A DNA stretch of 64,000 nucleotides from a virus (lineage: Duplodnaviria > Caudoviricetes): the IMG/VR virus record IMGVR_UViG_3300006155_000002. One strand, 5' to 3'. Shown here one piece after another: positions 70-63,105 of the stretch. How positions within the stretch are numbered: position 1 is the first letter of the stretch; every line of letters starts with the position of its first letter. The position numbers and the translations under genes were made by a program. The notes beneath the pieces were generated by a model that saw only the letters and a program-made list of their open reading frames with translations, was not told where the DNA came from and did no database searches.

Positions 70-1185
70 ATGAAACGAACGAACAATTTGTACGAAAAAC
101 TAATTTCGGATGACAATCTGATGCTTGCCCTTACAGAAGTGAATGCAAGCCACAGGTGGCTTCCGAAGCACAGACCAAATAAGACAGTAGCTTGGGTAGA
201 GCAGGATATGGAAGCGCGTGTGATAGAGCTGCGTACTATCATCGAGCAAATCGTATACCATAAGCGCCAGCTTTCCAAACCAAAGCAGAAGCACCGTTAC
301 GATAAAAGCGCAGGCAAATGGCGCATTATCAATGAGCCGAAGCTGTGGCCGGATCAATACATCCACCATGCACTCGTTCAAGTGCTTCAACCGACAATGA
401 TGCGCGGTATGGATCGGCATTGCTGCGGGAGTATTCGCAATCGCGGTATTCACTACGGCAAGAAGAAAATCGAGAAGTGGATGGACACAGATGTGAAGGG
501 CACCAAATACTGCGAAGAACTCGACATTCATCATTTCTATGATAGTATTGACCCGAAGTTCATTATGGCTCGACTGAAATGTCTCATCAAGGATTGGCGC
601 GTATTGAAAGTATGTGAGGAAATCTTACGATATGGCGTTCTGATCGGCCTGTACACATCGCAATGGTTCGCCAATACATTGTTGCAACCACTCGACCAAC
701 TCGTCAGAGACAGCGGACTCTGCACACACTATCTCAGATATATGGACAACTTCACAATATTTGGAAGCAACAAGAGGAAGCTGCACCGCCTGAGAAAGCT
801 AATTGAAGAATGGCTTGCAAGTGTGAGCCTGGCATTAAAGGGTAACTGGCAGGTGTTCCCGACAAAGAAACGTATGCCATGCGCATTGGGATACCGATTC
901 GGCAGAGGATACACACTGCTTAAAAAGAGGAATCTGTTCCGCCTTAAGCGAAAGCTGAATGAATACTATCGCCGAAAAAGGCAACACAGGAAAATATCCT
1001 CCAGAATGGCAACCGGTCTGATTTCCAGACTCGGACAACTCAAGCACTGTAACAACCGAAATATCTATGAAAAAATCTATCACGGCAAAGTTCAAAAAGA
1101 GCTGAAGCAGGTGATCCGAAATAATATGCGAGAGGAGAGATTAACGTGGAGTATGTATTTGGAGCAGACGGCTATAGCGGCGTAG
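70..1185 (+). CDS. Reverse transcriptase, diversity-generating retroelement (DGR) type
   Basis: 371 aa; motifs KWRIINEP, DQYIHHALVQVL, ELDIHHFYDSI, GVLIGLYTSQWFAN, YLRYMDNF, LGYRF; no maturase/endonuclease extension; located in the phage tail region. Confidence 0.9.
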   Translation: MKRTNNLYEKLISDDNLMLALTEVNASHRWLPKHRPNKTVAWVEQDMEARVIELRTIIEQIVYHKRQLSKPKQKHRYDKSAGKWRIINEPKLWPDQYIHHALVQVLQPTMMRGMDRHCCGSIRNRGIHYGKKKIEKWMDTDVKGTKYCEELDIHHFYDSIDPKFIMARLKCLIKDWRVLKVCEEILRYGVLIGLYTSQWFANTLLQPLDQLVRDSGLCTHYLRYMDNFTIFGSNKRKLHRLRKLIEEWLASVSLALKGNWQVFPTKKRMPCALGYRFGRGYTLLKKRNLFRLKRKLNEYYRRKRQHRKISSRMATGLISRLGQLKHCNNRNIYEKIYHGKVQKELKQVIRNNMREERLTWSMYLEQTAIAA

Positions 1186-2630: not shown

Positions 2631-2695
2631 AGGATCTGAGGGTCGTGCTTGGTTTGCATGGCCCTCTATACATAAAAGCGAAAGGAGGAGTTTCA

Positions 2696-3718
2696 GTGGG
2701 TAGAAAAACGAATCGTTGTCTGACGGCGCCGCAAGAGAAGATCGAGCAGATCAACCCTGAGAATATCAGGCTGATGAATGATTTTATCATGTATCTGCGC
2801 TCTGTGGATAGGTCTGAACAGACCATCGTAGTCTACAAGAACGATTTGCTGATCTTCTTCTGTTGGGTTGTAGACAACGCAAACAACAAGTTCTTCACTG
2901 AGATTTCAAAACGAGACATTATGGCTTTCCAGAACTACGCATTGGAGCAGGGCTGCTCCGCGAGCCGTGTCCGCCATTTGAAGGCCGCTCTGTCCTCTCT
3001 GTCAAACCTGATTACCAATATTCTGGACGACGAGTATCCAGATTACCGTCCGGTGGTTCGGAAGATTGAAAACCCGGTCAATGAACCTGTGCGGAAAAAG
3101 ACTGTGTTGACGAAAGAGCAGATTCAAGGATGCCTTGACTATTTGGTCGGGCACAGGAAGTATGAACAGGCGTGTTTTCTTGCGCTTGCCGCATACTCCG
3201 GCAGACGAAAATCTGAACTGAGCCGATTCAAGGCATCATACTTTACTGATGACAACATCATCTATGGTTCGCTCTATAAAACGCCGGAGAAAATTAAAAC
3301 CAAAGGCCGTGGCAAGAGCGGAAAGATGCTGACTTGCTATGTTCTGGCAAAACCCTTCAAGCCATATTTGGAGCTTTGGATGCAGGAGCGAGAGAAGAAA
3401 GGTATCGACAGCGAATGGCTGTTTACTGATGTCCACGATAGAACAAAACCCATCTCTGTTTCTCGGATGAATAGCTTTGCTCGAACATTCTCAAACATCA
3501 TTGGAGAGGATGTCTATCTTCATTCTCTACGGCACTTTATGACGAGTGAACTGGCAAGGGCTAATATTCCGGATTCTGTGATTCAGTCTCTGATTGGATG
3601 GGATTCGGCAGATATGGTTGGAGTGTATAAGGACATTGATGCCGATGAGGAGTTCGGCAAATATTTCAAGGATGGAGAGATTGTCGCACAAAAACAGGCA
3701 GACCTTGGAGACCTGTAA
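2696..3718 (+). CDS. Tyrosine recombinase (XerC/D-like)
   Basis: AAAGGAGG SD + GTG at 2696; catalytic residues SGRRKSEL (R), HSLRH (H-x-x-R), IGW (W), GVY (Y). Confidence 0.9.
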   Translation: MGRKTNRCLTAPQEKIEQINPENIRLMNDFIMYLRSVDRSEQTIVVYKNDLLIFFCWVVDNANNKFFTEISKRDIMAFQNYALEQGCSASRVRHLKAALSSLSNLITNILDDEYPDYRPVVRKIENPVNEPVRKKTVLTKEQIQGCLDYLVGHRKYEQACFLALAAYSGRRKSELSRFKASYFTDDNIIYGSLYKTPEKIKTKGRGKSGKMLTCYVLAKPFKPYLELWMQEREKKGIDSEWLFTDVHDRTKPISVSRMNSFARTFSNIIGEDVYLHSLRHFMTSELARANIPDSVIQSLIGWDSADMVGVYKDIDADEEFGKYFKDGEIVAQKQADLGDL

Positions 3719-3842
3719 TATGTTGCTTCCGCTATAGGCGGGGCGGGTTGCGACCCTCCCCTGCACCCCTCCCATAGGGGGTTGAAGGAGGCGGCGACAG
3801 CCGTAGAAAATAAAAGAGACGTTATAAGGAGGAATGAATGAC

Positions 3843-4748
3843 ATGAAATACAGCAATACAAATCCACCGCTTCAGTGTTTCATTCGTCAGAGTTCCTGGT
3901 ATCAGCGTGCCGGGAAAGTAAAGGTAAAAGGAGTGCTGTGGCACTCTACTGGCGCTGCTAACACAACGCTAAAGCGTTACGTTCAGCCGGATGACAATGA
4001 CCCAAACAGGAGCAAGCTGCTTGAGCTCATTGGCGTCAATAAGAATAACAACTCCTGGAATCGCCCTGGTCTGAATGTAGGTGTTCATGCCTTCATAGGA
4101 CAACTCGCCAGTGGTGAGGTTACTACCATTCAGACAGGAGATTGGGATAAAGAAGCATGGGGCTGCGGTCCAGGCAAAATTGGTTCTTGTAACAACGGGT
4201 GGATTCAGTTTGAAATCTGTGAGGACAAACTGGATGACCCTGTTTATTTTGAAAAGATTTATCGTGAGGGTGTGGAACTGACAGCGTATCTGTGCAAGCT
4301 CTATAACCTCGATCCGCAAGGCACAGTCACATACTGCGGCGTACAAGTTCCTGTTATCCTGTGCCACCAAGACAGCAACCGTCTTGGCCTGGGTTCTGCC
4401 CATGCCGATGTACTGCACTGGCTGCCGAAGTATGGCAAAAGTATGCAGACCGTTCGTGATGATGTCTCCGCTTTGCTGGCGGGGGCGAACAACAATAAGG
4501 AGGAGGATGATGACATGGATGTGGCACGTTTCAAGGAGCTTTACAACGAAATGCGCAGCGAGCTCCAGGACAATGACAGCGGTAAGTGGAGCGAGGAGGC
4601 CCGTGTCTGGGCAACTTCCACCGGCCTGATTGCCGGTGACGGCACAGAGGTAAACGGCGAACCCAATTATATGTGGGCTGATGTCCTCACTCGGGAACAG
4701 TTCGTGACTGTATTGTATCGCTTCGCAAAGAAGATGGGGATGGTCTAA
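3843..4748 (+). CDS. Endolysin, N-acetylmuramoyl-L-alanine amidase with C-terminal SLH-like domain
   Basis: LWHSTGA, VHAFIG, IQFEICED, CHQD, HADV amidase_2 motifs; C-terminal WSEEARVWA...GLIAG...TREQFVTVLYRF. Confidence 0.9.
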   Translation: MKYSNTNPPLQCFIRQSSWYQRAGKVKVKGVLWHSTGAANTTLKRYVQPDDNDPNRSKLLELIGVNKNNNSWNRPGLNVGVHAFIGQLASGEVTTIQTGDWDKEAWGCGPGKIGSCNNGWIQFEICEDKLDDPVYFEKIYREGVELTAYLCKLYNLDPQGTVTYCGVQVPVILCHQDSNRLGLGSAHADVLHWLPKYGKSMQTVRDDVSALLAGANNNKEEDDDMDVARFKELYNEMRSELQDNDSGKWSEEARVWATSTGLIAGDGTEVNGEPNYMWADVLTREQFVTVLYRFAKKMGMV

Positions 4749-4751
4749 GCC

Positions 4752-5111
4752 ATGACCATCAAGATTGAGCGTAGCCATAAGAAGACCCGGCGGCGCACAA
4801 AGAAGCGTCAGGGCATTGGATTTACTAACCTCTTTGCCCTGCTCCTCATACTGCTTCTTCTGCTGGGTCTGGCGGGCGGATTCATCCTCGCATGGAGGAG
4901 CATTGAGTACCAGTACATGGGTGCCCTCGCTTGCTTCACTGTGGTGTTCACGCCAATCGGAACAGCTATCGGCATCGTGCTGAACAGCATCGTTCGCAAG
5001 AGTGAGGCTGAAAATACTGGCGCTGACGGCGAGGGAATCAAGTACGCTGCTGCAAAAGCGGCTGGATTTACACAAACGGATGCGGTGGTAGAGGATAGCC
5101 CCGCAATCTGA
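4752..5111 (+). CDS. Two-TM membrane protein of the lysis cassette
   Basis: Basic N-terminus, two hydrophobic helices, KSEAENT motif; directly after the endolysin. Confidence 0.7.
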   Translation: MTIKIERSHKKTRRRTKKRQGIGFTNLFALLLILLLLLGLAGGFILAWRSIEYQYMGALACFTVVFTPIGTAIGIVLNSIVRKSEAENTGADGEGIKYAAAKAAGFTQTDAVVEDSPAI

Positions 5112-5125
5112 GAGGAGGTATAAAT

Positions 5126-5458
5126 ATGGAGTGGCTGCAACTGATTGCGTCAATCTTTGCCGGTCTGATTACCGCTATTCCTCTGGCTATTAAGCTGGTT
5201 GAGTATGTCAAGAAGGCCGTGAAGGAGAAGAACTGGGGCAAGGTTCTTGACATGGTTATGAAGTACATGGCTACTGCCGAGGAGAAGTTCGACAATGGTG
5301 CCGACCGTAAGGAATGGGTTCTCGCCATGGTCAAGGCTTCTGCCGACACTGTTGATTACGACATCAACATAGAGGAAATCAGCAAGCTCATCGATGACCT
5401 GTGCAAGATGAGCAAAAAGGTCAACGCACCTACTGAAACGGAGAAGGCAGGTGAGTGA
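5126..5458 (+). CDS. Putative holin (LL-H-like)
   Basis: GGAGG SD; N-terminal TM; AEEKF..GADRKEWV motif. Confidence 0.75.
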   Translation: MEWLQLIASIFAGLITAIPLAIKLVEYVKKAVKEKNWGKVLDMVMKYMATAEEKFDNGADRKEWVLAMVKASADTVDYDINIEEISKLIDDLCKMSKKVNAPTETEKAGE

Positions 5459-6568: not shown

Positions 6569-8080
6569 TTAAATCTTCCATGTAATTTCAACCTGTTCCT
6601 CATCTACTTTGATATTGTCAATGAGGGTATCTACGACAACCAGCTTGTCGCTAATACTGATTTTATTCCATTGCTGCAAATAGTCTCTGACTGTCCCTAC
6701 ATCTTTTCTGCCGTAAATGTCAGCAGACATTTCGGCAATTTCTTTTTTCAAAGAAGTTTTCTCTGAATCCAATTCTTCTATCTTACGATTGATGTATTCC
6801 ATCGTGGCTGCATTAGCAGAAAGAATTCGTTCCACGAGGATATTTATCTCGTGCTCAATCTGATCCACTCTCACTTTCTTTTTGGTGACCTCTATGCTGT
6901 CATCAACTTTTTCGTGCATTTGAAGCTCATTAAACTCAGCAAGTTTCTTTTGCATTTCAATGAACACGATGTCCTCTATTTTGTCTGCTTGAATAGAGCC
7001 GATACCGTCACACAGCATAGTGACGTACTTTCTTGCACACACATAATATCTCGCGTTTTCTGTGCGCTTTCTTTTGTAGTCTCTGAGCGATAGCGCATAT
7101 CCACATTTTCGGCATTTTATCTTTCCGGCGAGCCATGTATTTTTGGCCTTAACTGGTTTTGCTATCTGTCTCACATTAAGGCATTTTCTTCGACACTGAA
7201 GCCATAATGTAGAGTCGATACATCCTTCATGTGGTGCCAAAACCGCAATGTGTCCTTCCAATGAAACCGACTTTCGTTTATCTGCATCCTCACCAGTATA
7301 AAGGTACACTCCATTTGAACCTATGAACTGGGATATGTCATTGACGACAACGGCACCTTGACTTTGAAAGAACTCATAGATCGTATCGTCCGCTCTTAGA
7401 TATATAGGGTTCACAATAATGTCCCGCAAACGTGTCCTGCTGAAACCATCGCCATCACGATTCCGTATCCCATGGTCGAGTAGATATCGCATTACATCAG
7501 AGAAGGATGTTTGAGGGTCTGCGTACAGAGAATAGATTAGTCTCACGACTTCAATTTCTGTGGGAATTGGTTCATACATACTTGTCTTAATTCCATCTAT
7601 CACAGTATCTTTAAGCTGAAATCCATATGGCATTCGTCCACCCATGTAAAAACCCTTACGACTTCTGGAGCGGTATGCGTCTACTACACGTTGCTGTATC
7701 GTCTCGCGTTCAAGCTGTGCAAAGATCATGACGATCATCAGCATGGCCTTGCCTATTGGTGTCGATGTATCAAACCTCTCTGTCACCGACACAAATTCTA
7801 CACCGTACTTCTGAAATTCGTTGATAAGCTCCGCAAAGTCAAGCACCGAACGACTGATACGGTCAAGCCTGTATACGATAACTCGCGTTGTGTCGCCAGC
7901 TCTAATGCGATCCATCATGCGTTTGAAATCTGGTCTGTCTGTGTTTTTACCACTGTAGCCTTTATCCGAAAACTTCATGTACTCTGGTGAGGTTACTTCT
8001 TTCTCGCAAAGTTCAATTTGGCTTTCGACAGAGATACTGTCTTCGCGTTCTACTGACTGTCTTGCGTAAATAAAATCCAT
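6569..8080 (-). CDS. Large serine recombinase (integrase)
   Basis: YARQS catalytic motif, DKGYSG, VYRLDRISRS, LERETIQQR, recombinase domain, Zn ribbon (CRKCG...YYVC...C), coiled coil. Confidence 0.95.
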   Translation of the reverse strand: MDFIYARQSVEREDSISVESQIELCEKEVTSPEYMKFSDKGYSGKNTDRPDFKRMMDRIRAGDTTRVIVYRLDRISRSVLDFAELINEFQKYGVEFVSVTERFDTSTPIGKAMLMIVMIFAQLERETIQQRVVDAYRSRSRKGFYMGGRMPYGFQLKDTVIDGIKTSMYEPIPTEIEVVRLIYSLYADPQTSFSDVMRYLLDHGIRNRDGDGFSRTRLRDIIVNPIYLRADDTIYEFFQSQGAVVVNDISQFIGSNGVYLYTGEDADKRKSVSLEGHIAVLAPHEGCIDSTLWLQCRRKCLNVRQIAKPVKAKNTWLAGKIKCRKCGYALSLRDYKRKRTENARYYVCARKYVTMLCDGIGSIQADKIEDIVFIEMQKKLAEFNELQMHEKVDDSIEVTKKKVRVDQIEHEINILVERILSANAATMEYINRKIEELDSEKTSLKKEIAEMSADIYGRKDVGTVRDYLQQWNKISISDKLVVVDTLIDNIKVDEEQVEITWKI

Positions 8081-59850: not shown

Positions 59851-60423
59851 CTACTCGATCCAGCAAAGTACGGTGTCCTCGTCAATCCGAACTCCGTCCG
59901 GATTATCGCGGATTTCCTTCGCAAATTTTTCATAGTCGCGGAAACGACATACTCCTCTGAAATCAAATTCTGTGTCTGGAAGTTTCTCAGCATCACCAGA
60001 ATCTCTTCCATCGTCATATTCTTCGTTGCTCATATTCCACATAACATCGAAGACAAATTCTTCCGCACTGATATCGACCGTGACTCGGCCTTCTTCCCAG
60101 CGCCTGGTATCCTCAATACCTTCTTTTGTGACGGCCAGCAGTCCTATATTACGGTTAACCGCATCTCGGAAACTGATATTTTCAAATTTCCCAGATGTGT
60201 CATTCTCAATGCGCACTTTTTCCTCTTCATCTACCCCGGCACCTGTTGCCTGCAAAATTTCAACTGCAACCTTCAGTGGATTGATTTCAGTTCTGTTTTT
60301 GTATGATTCTAAGACAGTTCCAAGGGTAGAAAGAGAACTGCTTGTATATGCAGACCAATGGTAGTATGCATTGGCAAGAACCTCGCCATCATAGCACACT
60401 TCAAAATTTAATCTCTGTCCCAT
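59851..60423 (-). CDS. Hypothetical protein
   Basis: MGQRLN...YYHWSAYT. Confidence 0.7.
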   Translation of the reverse strand: MGQRLNFEVCYDGEVLANAYYHWSAYTSSSLSTLGTVLESYKNRTEINPLKVAVEILQATGAGVDEEEKVRIENDTSGKFENISFRDAVNRNIGLLAVTKEGIEDTRRWEEGRVTVDISAEEFVFDVMWNMSNEEYDDGRDSGDAEKLPDTEFDFRGVCRFRDYEKFAKEIRDNPDGVRIDEDTVLCWIE

Positions 60424-60920
60424 TAGGCTTCACCCCGCTTTGCAGAATAGATTTCTCTCACTCTGCCATCCTTGTAGAAAATTCTTGCATCCGGAGTAGT
60501 CCACCCGTATTCGTCTGCGATGTACTGAACATACTCTTCAATGTTATTGAAGCAGATGCTCCCTTCGTATCGCTCGAAAGCCCTGTCTTTCTTAAATGTC
60601 GGCGCTTCTACGATTTTGTACTTTCCGTAGCGCCGATTCCACTCCGCCACGGCATCAACACCATATCCGGTATAAATATGAACCCTATATCCTTCGGCCG
60701 CATATTTTATCAGATTGATTTCTTCTCCATATGGGTCCCATCGGTCACCGCAGCACGGACAGTCTATTCCATCAGCGACACCATTCCAATAGCAGCCAAT
60801 ATCTTCTGCTATGCGAAGAGCTTCTTTTTCATTGTCTGCTTCGATAAACAGTCTGTGGCATACCTTATCATCGACATGAAAGTGTCCACCAGAATTGTTT
60901 TGGTCAAATTCATAGAACAT
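60423..60920 (-). CDS. Conserved phage protein
   Basis: FYEFDQNNSGG...DCPCCGDRW. Confidence 0.75.
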   Translation of the reverse strand: MFYEFDQNNSGGHFHVDDKVCHRLFIEADNEKEALRIAEDIGCYWNGVADGIDCPCCGDRWDPYGEEINLIKYAAEGYRVHIYTGYGVDAVAEWNRRYGKYKIVEAPTFKKDRAFERYEGSICFNNIEEYVQYIADEYGWTTPDARIFYKDGRVREIYSAKRGEA

Positions 60921-61361: not shown

Positions 61362-61931
61362 TTAGTACCACTCCCAATACACAAGAGCACTGTCATTGTC
61401 CGGCTCTTTTGCTGGGAGTGTATCGTCCGGGAACGTCTCGTTGAATTTGTCGAGTACGTTTTTGTTTAATATGTAATAGCCCGTATTTTCAACGGGTTCT
61501 GGCAGGTTTTCGTGAATCCATTCTTGGATGTCATATGCTTTGCGCCAGTAGCGTACCTCCTTAGAGGCGCATATATAGCAGGTTTCCTCCCGGTTAATGA
61601 TGTACTTGCTCTCAATCAAGTCGTCTGAGAGCGTGACCGATTCACTTTTGCCGTCTCTGCTTCCGTGGATAAATGTCTTGGAGCCGTCTTTGTCGCAACA
61701 CCACCCTCCGATCCAAACATCGGTAAGATTGTAGTCCTCACCGATTTTTCTCAAATCGTAATAATGGTTCACAACGCGCACTTTGGCGCAATATGGCACA
61801 AGCTGTCGAATCGCTGGCTTGTCGGCATCGATTTCTTTGAAAATGATACCGTCGATATCGTTTCTGTCGTACACATCATCTTCACTAAGAGGCGGCTTAC
61901 TTACCATGTATACGTTCATGTCAAGCCCCAT
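61362..61931 (-). CDS. Conserved phage protein
   Basis: MGLDM...YWRKA..I..W...Y..W; AAAGGAGG SD. Confidence 0.7.
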   Translation of the reverse strand: MGLDMNVYMVSKPPLSEDDVYDRNDIDGIIFKEIDADKPAIRQLVPYCAKVRVVNHYYDLRKIGEDYNLTDVWIGGWCCDKDGSKTFIHGSRDGKSESVTLSDDLIESKYIINREETCYICASKEVRYWRKAYDIQEWIHENLPEPVENTGYYILNKNVLDKFNETFPDDTLPAKEPDNDSALVYWEWY

Positions 61932-61959
61932 AACGATTCCTCCTTTTTTGAATTGGACG

Positions 61960-61992
61960 AAAAAATACCCGAACTGCCATTAGTAGTCCGGA
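61960..61992 (-). terminator. Intrinsic terminator closing the protein+ncRNA unit
   Basis: CCGGACT/AGTTCGG stem + TATTTTTT on - strand. Confidence 0.65.
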
Positions 61993-62005
61993 TACTGTTT
62001 CTTAT

Positions 62006-62453
62006 ATTCGGTTGCCTTGTTCAGAGTCAAAGATTCATAATCCATTCAGACCAATTTTTTGCATATAAGCATACATTATTTTATTTGAGGAGAATCATCT
62101 CCGCTATATACGTTTCCAAGACGTATTAAAGAATTGTTCGGCGAATAGAGAAATGTGTATCGTGTTCTGCAGTTGTCGAATTTCGAGTTATCGTGCGATG
62201 CAGTGAACGCCGTAACGATTATGAGCGGAAAAATTTACGCATAGCAGGTAACGAACAAGTTTGTTTGACATAGATAATCAGTCTATATTTCTTCGATTTT
62301 GAACCATTACCTTGAATGGTAGAATCTTTTGTCAAAAAGATTTTTATTTGAGTTTTCGGCACACTCAACTCGCCCCGCAGCGCTATACTTCGTCTGCGGC
62401 TGAAGCGGCCTGAACTTCATACTCCACTTTGACTCTGAACGAGACAGCCGAAT
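62006..62453 (-). ncRNA. Large structured non-coding RNA candidate
   Basis: 27-bp terminal inverted repeat 62006-62032/62427-62453, symmetric internal loop, 8-bp second stem, at least seven internal stems; no credible ORF. Confidence 0.7.
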
Positions 62454-62466
62454 GGCTGCCCCTTTC

Positions 62467-63105
62467 TTACTCAGCGGGGTTGAAACGATGGACGAACATT
62501 TCGACAGCATCCTCAAAGGAGTCATTCACACTGTATTCGGGTTCATACTCGACGACCAGCTCCACCATCGCCTTGTCGATCTCGGCAGAAACCTCGTCAG
62601 CCTTGCTCATCAGGCTGCGGCCCGTATCCCTAACCTTGTTGCGGTCAAAGTCGATGACCGTGACCTGCTTGACGTCGTAGTTGTAGGTCACCTGGTTACC
62701 TTCGCCGTTGAACTTATAGTCGATGCCGCGAATGACGCTCTCAGAAGGACGCTGTTTGCTCATTTCGGCAAAGACAGACGCAACTCTCTGGCGGGTTCGA
62801 TTATTGGTGATCTCCGCGTCAATGTCGATAGAGCAGCTTCGCTTTGCAGTGCTGATTGCTGCCGTCAGCGTCTCCTTCTCCACCATAAGATGGTTCAGGA
62901 AACTCACCAGTTGGTTGTTGGTACACTCAAATGGGCGGTCTGCGGTGATCTCTACGATTTCGTCCTCGGCATCGGAATTGGCCTTGTGCCGCAGATGTTC
63001 CTGAGTTGTCCTGGTGATGTAGCTCCGTGCAGACAGGTAGCCGACAGTTCTTTCCACCAGTCCGCTCAAGTAATTTTGGTAGCGGAATGCTTCTTTCAAA
63101 TACAT
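62467..63105 (-). CDS. Uncharacterised 212-aa helical protein immediately upstream of the ncRNA
   Basis: AGGAGG SD before MYLKEAFRYQN; YKFNGEGNQVTY..DV..V..IDFDRNK motif. Confidence 0.8.
   Translation of the reverse strand: MYLKEAFRYQNYLSGLVERTVGYLSARSYITRTTQEHLRHKANSDAEDEIVEITADRPFECTNNQLVSFLNHLMVEKETLTAAISTAKRSCSIDIDAEITNNRTRQRVASVFAEMSKQRPSESVIRGIDYKFNGEGNQVTYNYDVKQVTVIDFDRNKVRDTGRSLMSKADEVSAEIDKAMVELVVEYEPEYSVNDSFEDAVEMFVHRFNPAE

Follow-up and report, generated by a model that had tools for sequence, protein, structure and literature searches.

A protein gene followed by a non-coding segment

The window described here is a whole stretch of 64,000 nucleotides (nt), given as the minus strand of the IMG/VR virus record IMGVR_UViG_3300006155_000002 (Duplodnaviria; Caudoviricetes), a genome of 67 kb. 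It encodes early and replication functions of a large phage of the gut or rumen, such as NrdD, DNA polymerase, primase, helicase, methyltransferase, and integrases. Close to the end of the window, a 212-aa open reading frame (ORF) lies within a tightly packed series of minus-strand genes, and it is followed on the same strand by a gap of 535 nt (61932–62466) in which no credible ORF is found, before the next gene (61362–61931) begins. An earlier reading made from the sequence only had singled out this gene and the ORF-poor gap, both of which are confirmed by the ORF list, and had proposed that they form a new protein with a large structured non-coding RNA. The gene and the RNA are here called the module.

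The gap was searched for other kinds of content. No conserved small ORF was noticed by eye in the alignments, no formal test being made. A tRNA/tmRNA search of the gap gave none, tandem repeats were not found in the RNA region, and a promoter scan for the sigma-70 consensus only revealed no site between the protein gene and the RNA.

A large RNA folded from the gene strand

The region of ~450 nt behind the gene is a real, large structured RNA that is folded from the gene strand, as the sequence-only reading had supposed, and it is conserved and covarying. Its ends are joined by a long closing helix, P1 (Table 1). In this genome the arms of P1 are 27 nt each with 394 nt between them, and 24 Watson-Crick pairs (89%) plus one G·U pair make up the 25 of 27 paired positions of the inverted repeat that had been reported. 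P1 is followed by a purine-rich internal loop and by a second helix, P2. The nearly identical strands of this loop and the second stem are present as described before, while the two-fold symmetry read from them is restricted to the closest relatives. The transcript of the gene strand has a minimum free energy of −152.9 kcal/mol, which gives z = −5.5 when compared with 100 dinucleotide shuffles, and the plus strand also folds well (z = −4.95).

Conservation was followed through 41 viral and 80 genomic loci obtained by a protein-based search. Locus L004 shows 72% identity over 560 nt of the downstream region, and both ends are conserved in L006–L010. Covariation was counted in an alignment of 58 non-redundant diverse RNAs for a structure of 43 pairs, namely P1, P2, and a pseudoknot described below. 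In these pairs 90.5% of the cells are paired, compared with 32.8–41.6% when the 3′ partners are slid by 1–3 columns. Two-sided compensatory changes occur at 33 pairs in 420 cells, and the observed covariation score was reached by none of 500 shuffles. Indeed, 25 of the 26 pairs that P1 has across the family show two-sided changes, so the terminal stem passes the covariation check to which it was put; P2 also covaries. Read on the gene strand, G·U outnumbers A·C in the modelled pairs by 200 to 65. This excess means that the folded strand is the gene strand, and it is a signature of an RNA and not of a DNA palindrome. A terminator-like hairpin (~61993–61960), also predicted earlier, keeps its stem in the relatives with compensatory changes and, together with the G·U excess, supports an RNA of the gene strand.

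The hallmark of the family is an H-type pseudoknot, which is the best conserved stretch of the whole RNA. It follows the last pair of P2 directly and hence lies at the main junction. In its first stem (S1), a pair switches between GC (47 sequences) and CG (11 sequences) with zero mismatches. In the second stem (S2), the outer two pairs covary, one as GC/AU/CG/GU/UA/UG (3 of 58 unpaired) and the other as UA/CG/UG. Conservation extends to the loops (AG, AC, and AUAGCG), the 58 sequences are identical at most of the remaining positions, and the family consensus is CCGGUUCAGGUGCAGAUGAACUAUAACGCUGCAC. The sequence-only reading had taken CCGCAG/CUGCGG for a simple hairpin and had missed the pseudoknot, of which this pairing is S2. 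In minority clades (e.g., L032 and L035–L043), the pseudoknot is replaced by a simple hairpin with the related loop CAGCGAUGAAGG.

A further hairpin lies just past the stop codon of the protein gene. Six of its seven pairs are kept in eight out of eight distinct close relatives, with GU/AU/GC variation, and the seventh in three out of eight. This hairpin and P1 are mutually exclusive, because both use GGCUGUC, which forms one arm of the hairpin and the outer part of the 5′ strand in P1. Both are maintained by compensatory changes in eight distinct relatives from the clade of the window. A terminating ribosome would cover the upstream arm, and this could couple translation of the gene to full closure of P1.

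Coupling of the gene and the RNA

The coupling between the gene and the RNA is essentially absolute. A 19-nt pattern of the pseudoknot alone, searched in 2.9 million viral contigs, matched 60 loci. Three of them were rejected as coincidences in coding sequence, lying inside unrelated genes (G-S-[AG]-A-D-E-L). Among the other 57, the protein gene ends 55–78 nt upstream of the motif in 56, and the last one is cut by the contig end; no copy at an unrelated locus was therefore seen. From the protein side, the pseudoknot pattern is present in 99 of 115 loci, a rough count only, since the generic pattern is little specific (26 of 115 shuffled controls were positive). A protein homologue lacking the RNA is rare: in 111 of 115 loci, the first 60–90 nt past the stop codon have their best pairing partner in a segment 250–450 nt further on, with sequences differing among the loci. 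The rarity of such homologues, the covariation of P1, and the lack of copies elsewhere favour a real gene–RNA unit.

The flanking genes are otherwise not conserved among the loci. An apparent downstream family of 54 loci turned out to be single-linkage chaining of spurious G+C-rich ORFs; blastp with one of its members recovered 18 proteins (17 besides the query), and thus there is no universal third gene.

Viral matches are found on contigs of up to 216 kb. The genomic ones belong almost entirely to Clostridia of the gut and rumen (Oscillospiraceae, Faecalibacterium, Ruminococcus). Relatives are also known from cultured hosts, namely Faecalibacterium tardum CLA-AA-H175, Oscillospiraceae LBM23126, and Intestinimonas butyriciproducens. 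In several of the larger relatives, the module is flanked by tRNA genes on one side or on both. For example, in L014 the protein gene is followed by the RNA (3635–4086) and then, within 4170–5216, by tRNA-Met, a match to the GOLLD RNA (4581–5015, ~500 nt behind the RNA), tRNA-Asn, and tRNA-Gly. The GOLLD match scores 89 bits, under the cut-off of 150. From this arrangement, the RNA is distinct from GOLLD but resides in the same neighbourhood.

Some settings are shared by subsets of the loci. A drum RNA is located among tRNAs in L037 (4708–4817). At L013 (56–2755) and 13 other loci (14 of 118), a protein of 770–900 aa with matches to Pfam RdRP (PF05183) and phrog_8308 is encoded ~370 nt upstream of the module; by our own reading it is YonO-like. 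In the Faecalibacterium loci L112, L120, L127, and L031, a long ORF of ~250–440 aa, hydrophobic-looking and conserved among them, comes after the module, and the setting there is perhaps a small island and not a full prophage.

The protein and its predicted fold

The N-terminus of the protein, M-x-LKEAFRYQN, is invariant in the family. The isoelectric point (pI) of this member is 5.0, and the family has a median pI of 5.2 with a net charge of −6. Searches against Pfam (E ≤ 0.1), PHROGs, NCBIfam, PADLOC, and PDB sequences gave zero matches. A profile search recovered 2,110 homologous clusters at 90% identity, every named one of which is “hypothetical,” as in Intestinimonas butyriciproducens. 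Most of these relatives belong to phages and prophages of Oscillospiraceae, Faecalibacterium, and related Clostridia.

An AlphaFold2 model built with 25 homologues has a predicted local distance difference test (pLDDT) score of 91.9 and consists of a helical bundle with beta hairpins. Its best match among solved structures is 3kdq, DIP1984 of Corynebacterium diphtheriae (VIA-align Z 11.4, 145/152 residues, root-mean-square deviation 4.2 Å), the next matches having Z of 8.6 or lower. Foldseek against PDB gives nothing at E ≤ 0.001, though 3kdq appears with a probability of 0.98; against BFVD it finds one uncharacterised Vibrio phage protein (E 8.4e-4), and the remaining matches are weak. Atlas clusters with DUF6847 or DUF7873 align at template modelling (TM) scores of 0.56–0.76, those with DUF6847 at 0.62/0.76. 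Judging from this confident model, the protein has the DIP1984/DUF6847 fold, and the comparison with DIP1984-like folds that had been suggested from the sequence was well chosen. In three host genomes carrying the gene, the PF20935 model gives no match to it, and hhalign of this family against the DUF6847 profile finds no similarity (probability 1.5%). As the sequence profiles do not connect the two families, the protein is regarded as sharing the fold but standing outside PF20935.

The protein is probably a homodimer. Its dimer prediction passes with a score of 0.69, compared with 0.12 for the best of three controls; this mark is reached by 20 of 30 proteins solved as one-chain pairs and by 1 of 23 solved as single chains, counts that hold roughly only because a custom alignment was used. 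The runs agree in at least 98% of contacts, and the partner pLDDT is at least 88. The pass may reflect likeness to solved 3kdq-like dimers, if such exist. Residues 1–13, including the invariant KEAFRYQN, are not named among the interface residues of the dimer model.

A parallel arrangement behind DUF6847 genes

Because the fold pointed to DUF6847, genuine DUF6847 genes were examined as well. PF20935 scored above its cut-off 15 times among 301 Bacillota genomes. The DNA downstream of the genuine genes (L195–L207, L215, L216) is ORF-free for at least 250 nt and contains a conserved element of ~200–250 nt. This element starts with GGUAGC or GUGUAGCC on its 5′ side, is closed by a bipartite helix of 20–25 bp whose sequence differs completely by locus with the pairing always kept, often contains a T-arm-like hairpin, and ends in an invariant 3′ tail, GUGAGGGUGGG...GGGG. 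The same layout is seen in a viral DUF6847 locus (L218:1956–2170), one of only two loci retrieved from viral contigs with narrow search patterns. Rfam has no family for the element. DUF7873 (PF25283), the third related family, gave nothing in 351 genomes, all of Bacillota.

The protein-plus-RNA arrangement looks common to both families that share the fold. That two such families, without detectable sequence similarity, each have a stem-closed RNA behind the gene is the strongest indirect argument that the proteins work with the RNAs.

The central domain and other features of the window

RNAalifold on the full MAFFT alignments recovers P1, P2, and the pseudoknot only. These full-length alignments are too poor in the centre, the covariance-model builder is limited to 400 columns, and the sequences of the central domain vary too much for alignment unless a full-length model is used; the statements on it are therefore local. 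In the clade of the window, the core of a CUGCA/UGCAG pairing and the CGGCG/CGCCG pairing have column-level support. As for the inner hairpins listed in the sequence-only reading, pairing is kept through changed sequence, by eye, in UUGAGU/ACUCAA and the three 3′ hairpins, and the same is true of an AUAGA/UCUAU stem. On the other hand, AAUCUUUU/AAAAGAUU and ACCAUU/AAUGGU are not conserved and belong to a region that varies by lineage. The proposed UUGUUCG/CGAACAA stem is poorly supported, and its neighbour CGGCG/CGCCG is supported better.

The core of the domain is poor in G. Throughout the family, a segment of ~90 nt has a median G content of 11.5% compared with 23% overall and is C-rich (34%); GG is avoided, and G mostly follows C. 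At the family level, G autocorrelates most strongly at lag 7 (z 4.8), and echoes of this are seen at 8–9 and 15–16; C autocorrelates at lags 4, 8 (z 6.3), and 16. These z-values are not strict probabilities, since the sequences are related. The loose spacing of ~7 nt remarked on earlier in this one genome is thus statistically visible family-wide. The core holds the direct repeat ACUGCA-N5-CACGAUA twice. A direct repeat of 16 nt is present in it on the minus strand, as ACUGCAGAACACGAUA and ACUGCAUCGCACGAUA (62158–62173 and 62189–62204), with starts 31 nt apart.

Beyond P1, RNAs of the main clade (L026, L030, L060, L070, L081, L085, L095, L099, L117, L122) have a conserved 3′ tail, UGAGCAGCAGG, 12–20 nt after the helix. 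This tail can partly pair with the leader just past the stop codon, and it recalls the G-rich tail of the DUF6847 element.

Table 1. Parts of the module in the window, in the order of transcription
Feature	Position	Strand	Basis or remark
Protein gene, 212 aa, acidic	62467–63105	−	ORF; predicted DIP1984-like fold; predicted homodimer
Whole non-coding segment	61960–62466	−	structured RNA of ~450 nt (62453–62006), short spacer, and terminator
Hairpin just past the stop codon, GGCAGCC-AUUC-GGCUGUC	62443–62460	−	arms 62460–62454 / 62449–62443
P1, 5′ strand, long closing helix	62427–62453	−	inverted repeat and covariation
Purine-rich internal loop, 5′ strand, UGGAGUAUGAAG	62415–62426	−	sequence
P2, 5′ strand, UUCAGGCC	62407–62414	−	compensatory changes
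H-type pseudoknot, family hallmark	62375–62406	−	covariation in 58 sequences
Pseudoknot S1, GCUUC / GAAGU	62406–62402 / 62391–62387	−	covariation
Pseudoknot S2, CCGCAG / CUGCGG	62399–62394 / 62380–62375	−	covariation
Central domain	62053–62374	−	lineage-variable hairpins; partial, alignment-dependent support
Candidate second local pseudoknot, GGCG / UGCC	62374–62371 / 62361–62358	−	partial support
G-poor, weakly structured core	62134–62258	−	G (mostly CG or UG) every ~7–8 nt
Pairing CGGCG / CGCCG	62212–62208 / 62143–62139	−	column-level support in the clade of the window
3′ hairpin ACGU / ACGU	62124–62121 / 62113–62110	−	by eye, partial
3′ hairpin GGAGA / UCUCC	62102–62098 / 62093–62089	−	by eye, partial
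3′ hairpin UGUAUG / UAUGCA	62075–62070 / 62065–62060	−	by eye, partial
P2, 3′ strand, GGUCUGAA	62045–62052	−	compensatory changes; preceded by conserved AAAUUGG
Internal loop, 3′ strand, UGGAUUAUGAAU	62033–62044	−	sequence
P1, 3′ strand, long closing helix	62006–62032	−	inverted repeat and covariation
Terminator-like hairpin CCGGAC...GUUCGG with U-run	61960–61993	−	ahead of the ribosome-binding site of the next gene

The gene directly after the RNA (61362–61931) is common to the closest relatives only and has a weak match to phrog_27588. Among the small unknown genes downstream of the module, one encodes a DUF7296 protein (60423–60920, minus strand; Pfam E 8.6e-26). A reverse transcriptase (phrog_1423; 70–1185, plus strand), a tyrosine-type integrase (2645–3718, plus strand), and a large serine recombinase (6569–8080, minus strand) are encoded towards the opposite end of the window and have no positional relation to the module.

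Comparison with known systems

In Rfam 15, the segment 61500–63200 has only chance-level matches at E ≤ 10 (E 3.7–8.6, far below the cut-offs). When 10 relatives were searched by E-value, and the window and 20 loci at the gathering score, only tRNAs, one drum RNA, and the one sub-threshold GOLLD were found, all outside the element. The covariance model for the conserved 3′ domain of GOLLD (RF02032) does not match the window, whether E ≤ 10 or the gathering score is applied, and ROOL (RF03087) matches neither in the window nor in the 20 related loci. The Rfam comparison called for by the sequence-only reading thus yields no family, and its statement that protein and RNA are not assignable to a characterised system holds for both. 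No description of this RNA was found in the literature searched, nor any mention of DIP1984, DUF6847, or 3KDQ, and the RNA motif gave nothing in 200 of the 408 supplementary files of PMC8040213. The RNA and the protein match no catalogued family; large catalogues of unnamed candidates (PMC8040213, PMC10690425) could contain the RNA.

Among known RNAs, GOLLD and ROOL resemble this one in several respects: it too is large, multi-helix, pseudoknotted, carried by phages and prophages, and without an assigned function, and it too is found in phages of the gut, the rumen, and Bacillota, with a place at tRNA islands in the larger relatives. It differs from them in being smaller (~430–470 nt), closed by one 26-bp helix, and always preceded by one specific protein gene. 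Another precedent is the OLE RNA, an ornate RNA of ~600 nt in Bacillota that forms a particle with dedicated, genomically linked Oap proteins and is chromosomal in extremophiles and anaerobes. Where a large structured RNA has a protein partner of its own, OLE/Oap is the best precedent. The present RNA has no Rfam match to OLE and is phage-borne, and its protein is unrelated to Oap, soluble, and acidic, with no membrane segments noted.

DIP1984/DUF6847 (Pfam PF20935) has had a crystal structure (3kdq) since 2009 with no function assigned. Likeness to it lies in the fold, in the start of the N-terminal helix (MKLAEAL there, MxLKEAF here), in being common in phages, and in the stem-closed non-coding element downstream. 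However, there is no significant sequence similarity, the present protein is ~55 residues longer, and its RNA is twice as long and has a GGUUCAG...GAAC pseudoknot instead of the GUGAGGGUGGG tail.

P1 can be compared with the processing stalks of rRNA, in which a long helix of the 5′ and 3′ flanks is cut by RNase III, an enzyme that needs a double-stranded stem of ~20 bp or more. Like them, P1 is a helix of at least 25 bp made from both ends of the RNA, with conserved length and drifting sequence, cleavage being putative here. With 26–27 bp it is long enough, and an RNase III stalk is plausible by length, though the role of the helix may be purely structural.

A possible RNA–protein particle and its alternatives

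With moderate confidence, we favour the view that the module is a co-transcribed RNA–protein particle, with the RNA doing the work and the dimeric protein as its dedicated partner. The operon transcript would run through the protein gene into the RNA and stop at the terminator (~61960). P1 would serve as a double-strand processing stalk of the RNase III type that frees the RNA, or as simple protection of its ends. Behind P1 and the internal loop, P2 stacks on the pseudoknot at the main junction, and the interior contains hairpins that vary together with ~90–120 nt of single strand that is poor in G and rich in C. The newly made protein dimer would then bind its own RNA in cis, with the invariant exposed N-terminal helix (K4, R8, Y9, Q10, N11) as the probable contact against the pseudoknot and junction, and a stable particle would result, which would work like OLE/Oap, SmpB–tmRNA, or Ro–Y RNA. 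The module lies in early or accessory regions and, in larger phages, heads tRNA/GOLLD islands, a position that points towards the biology of host RNA or translation. The periodic G-poor array and the tRNA-island setting might even mean that RNA-binding or translation factors of the host are contacted, which is speculation.

Several points weigh against the particle. The protein is acidic, as its median pI and net charge show, and is without a recognised RNA-binding domain. We infer its binding of the RNA from strict genomic coupling, and strict adjacency could come from co-transcription alone; co-transcription of the gene with the RNA and processing of the transcript are themselves putative, being read from the sequence. 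The symmetric loop had been proposed as the site of the dimer, and its symmetry is not conserved across the family. Since the profiles of the two protein families do not match, the link between the two protein–RNA pairs comes from fold and arrangement, and it may have arisen by convergence. Moreover, GOLLD and ROOL, the phage RNAs nearest in setting, work as RNA-only assemblies for which a protein partner is not known (10.1101/2024.12.08.627333).

This last point leads to the closest competitor, in which the RNA is a machine by itself, a self-assembling homo-oligomer or a decoy like GOLLD/ROOL, and the gene shares its transcript or pathway without binding. We regard it as rather unlikely. It would account for an ornate, highly conserved RNA with a nearly invariant pseudoknot, for the acidic protein, and for the location next to tRNA genes and, in one lineage, a sub-threshold GOLLD match, which is the setting described for GOLLD/ROOL (10.1101/2024.12.08.627333). 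It does not readily account for a gene order that is essentially invariant, with a spacing of 55–78 nt, across proteins down to ~33% identity while the other neighbours vary, or for the same arrangement with a different RNA in the structurally related DUF6847, which is unexpected from simple co-transcription.

Less probable still is a cis-acting or antidote RNA, either a 3′ untranslated region that controls the stability or translation of the message for the protein, possibly with feedback by the protein, or an RNA that neutralises the protein as in toxin–antitoxin pairs. Tight two-gene coupling on mobile elements would suit such a role, and so would the competition between the stop-codon hairpin and the outer part of P1, both of which covary and could link translation to RNA folding. 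Nevertheless, an RNA of ~450 nt that has a 26-bp closing helix, one or more pseudoknots, and numerous conserved hairpins is far beyond the needs of known 3′-end stabilisers. In type III systems, the antitoxin RNA consists of tandem repeats and is encoded upstream of a ToxN-like endoribonuclease toxin, but here tandem repeats are lacking, the order is reversed, the fold has no nuclease-like match, and PADLOC is without a match. Finally, a DNA-level element bounded by the 27-bp inverted repeats, such as a miniature inverted-repeat transposable element, a replication origin, or a recombination site, would explain the terminal repeats 394 nt apart, the locally lower G+C (0.36–0.40), and the good folding of both strands. 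It is nonetheless very improbable: the element is single copy in its 67-kb genome, the motif matches in the 2.9 million viral contigs all lie behind the protein gene save the three coding coincidences and the one contig end, the arms covary freely yet pair, G·U exceeds A·C by 3:1 on one strand, the internal pseudoknot covaries, and no tRNA is present.

Significance of the module

To our knowledge, large highly structured RNAs of bacteria and phages are rare, and almost every one that has been studied revealed new biochemistry. The RNA described here represents an abundant new class of large RNA, absent from Rfam, whose partner protein forms more than 2,100 clusters at 90% identity in phages and prophages of gut and rumen Clostridia. 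It offers an experimental handle that GOLLD and ROOL do not, namely a small protein strictly linked to it, and relatives in cultured hosts make experiments feasible. Furthermore, the arrangement behind DUF6847/DIP1984 genes offers a testable function, that of an RNA partner, for an orphan of structural genomics.

The RNA–protein particle may also be part of something wider. Tentatively, and with less confidence than in the particle itself, proteins of the DIP1984 fold can be viewed as dedicated partners of RNAs encoded directly behind them, the phage branch having an expanded RNA of ~450 nt, and the protein or a captured host factor (e.g., Rho- or S1-like) could line up along the CG/UG array. 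If this is true, there would be a widespread, unrecognised class of bacterial and phage RNA–protein particles, and its phage branch would be a protein-assisted counterpart of the GOLLD/ROOL RNA assemblies.

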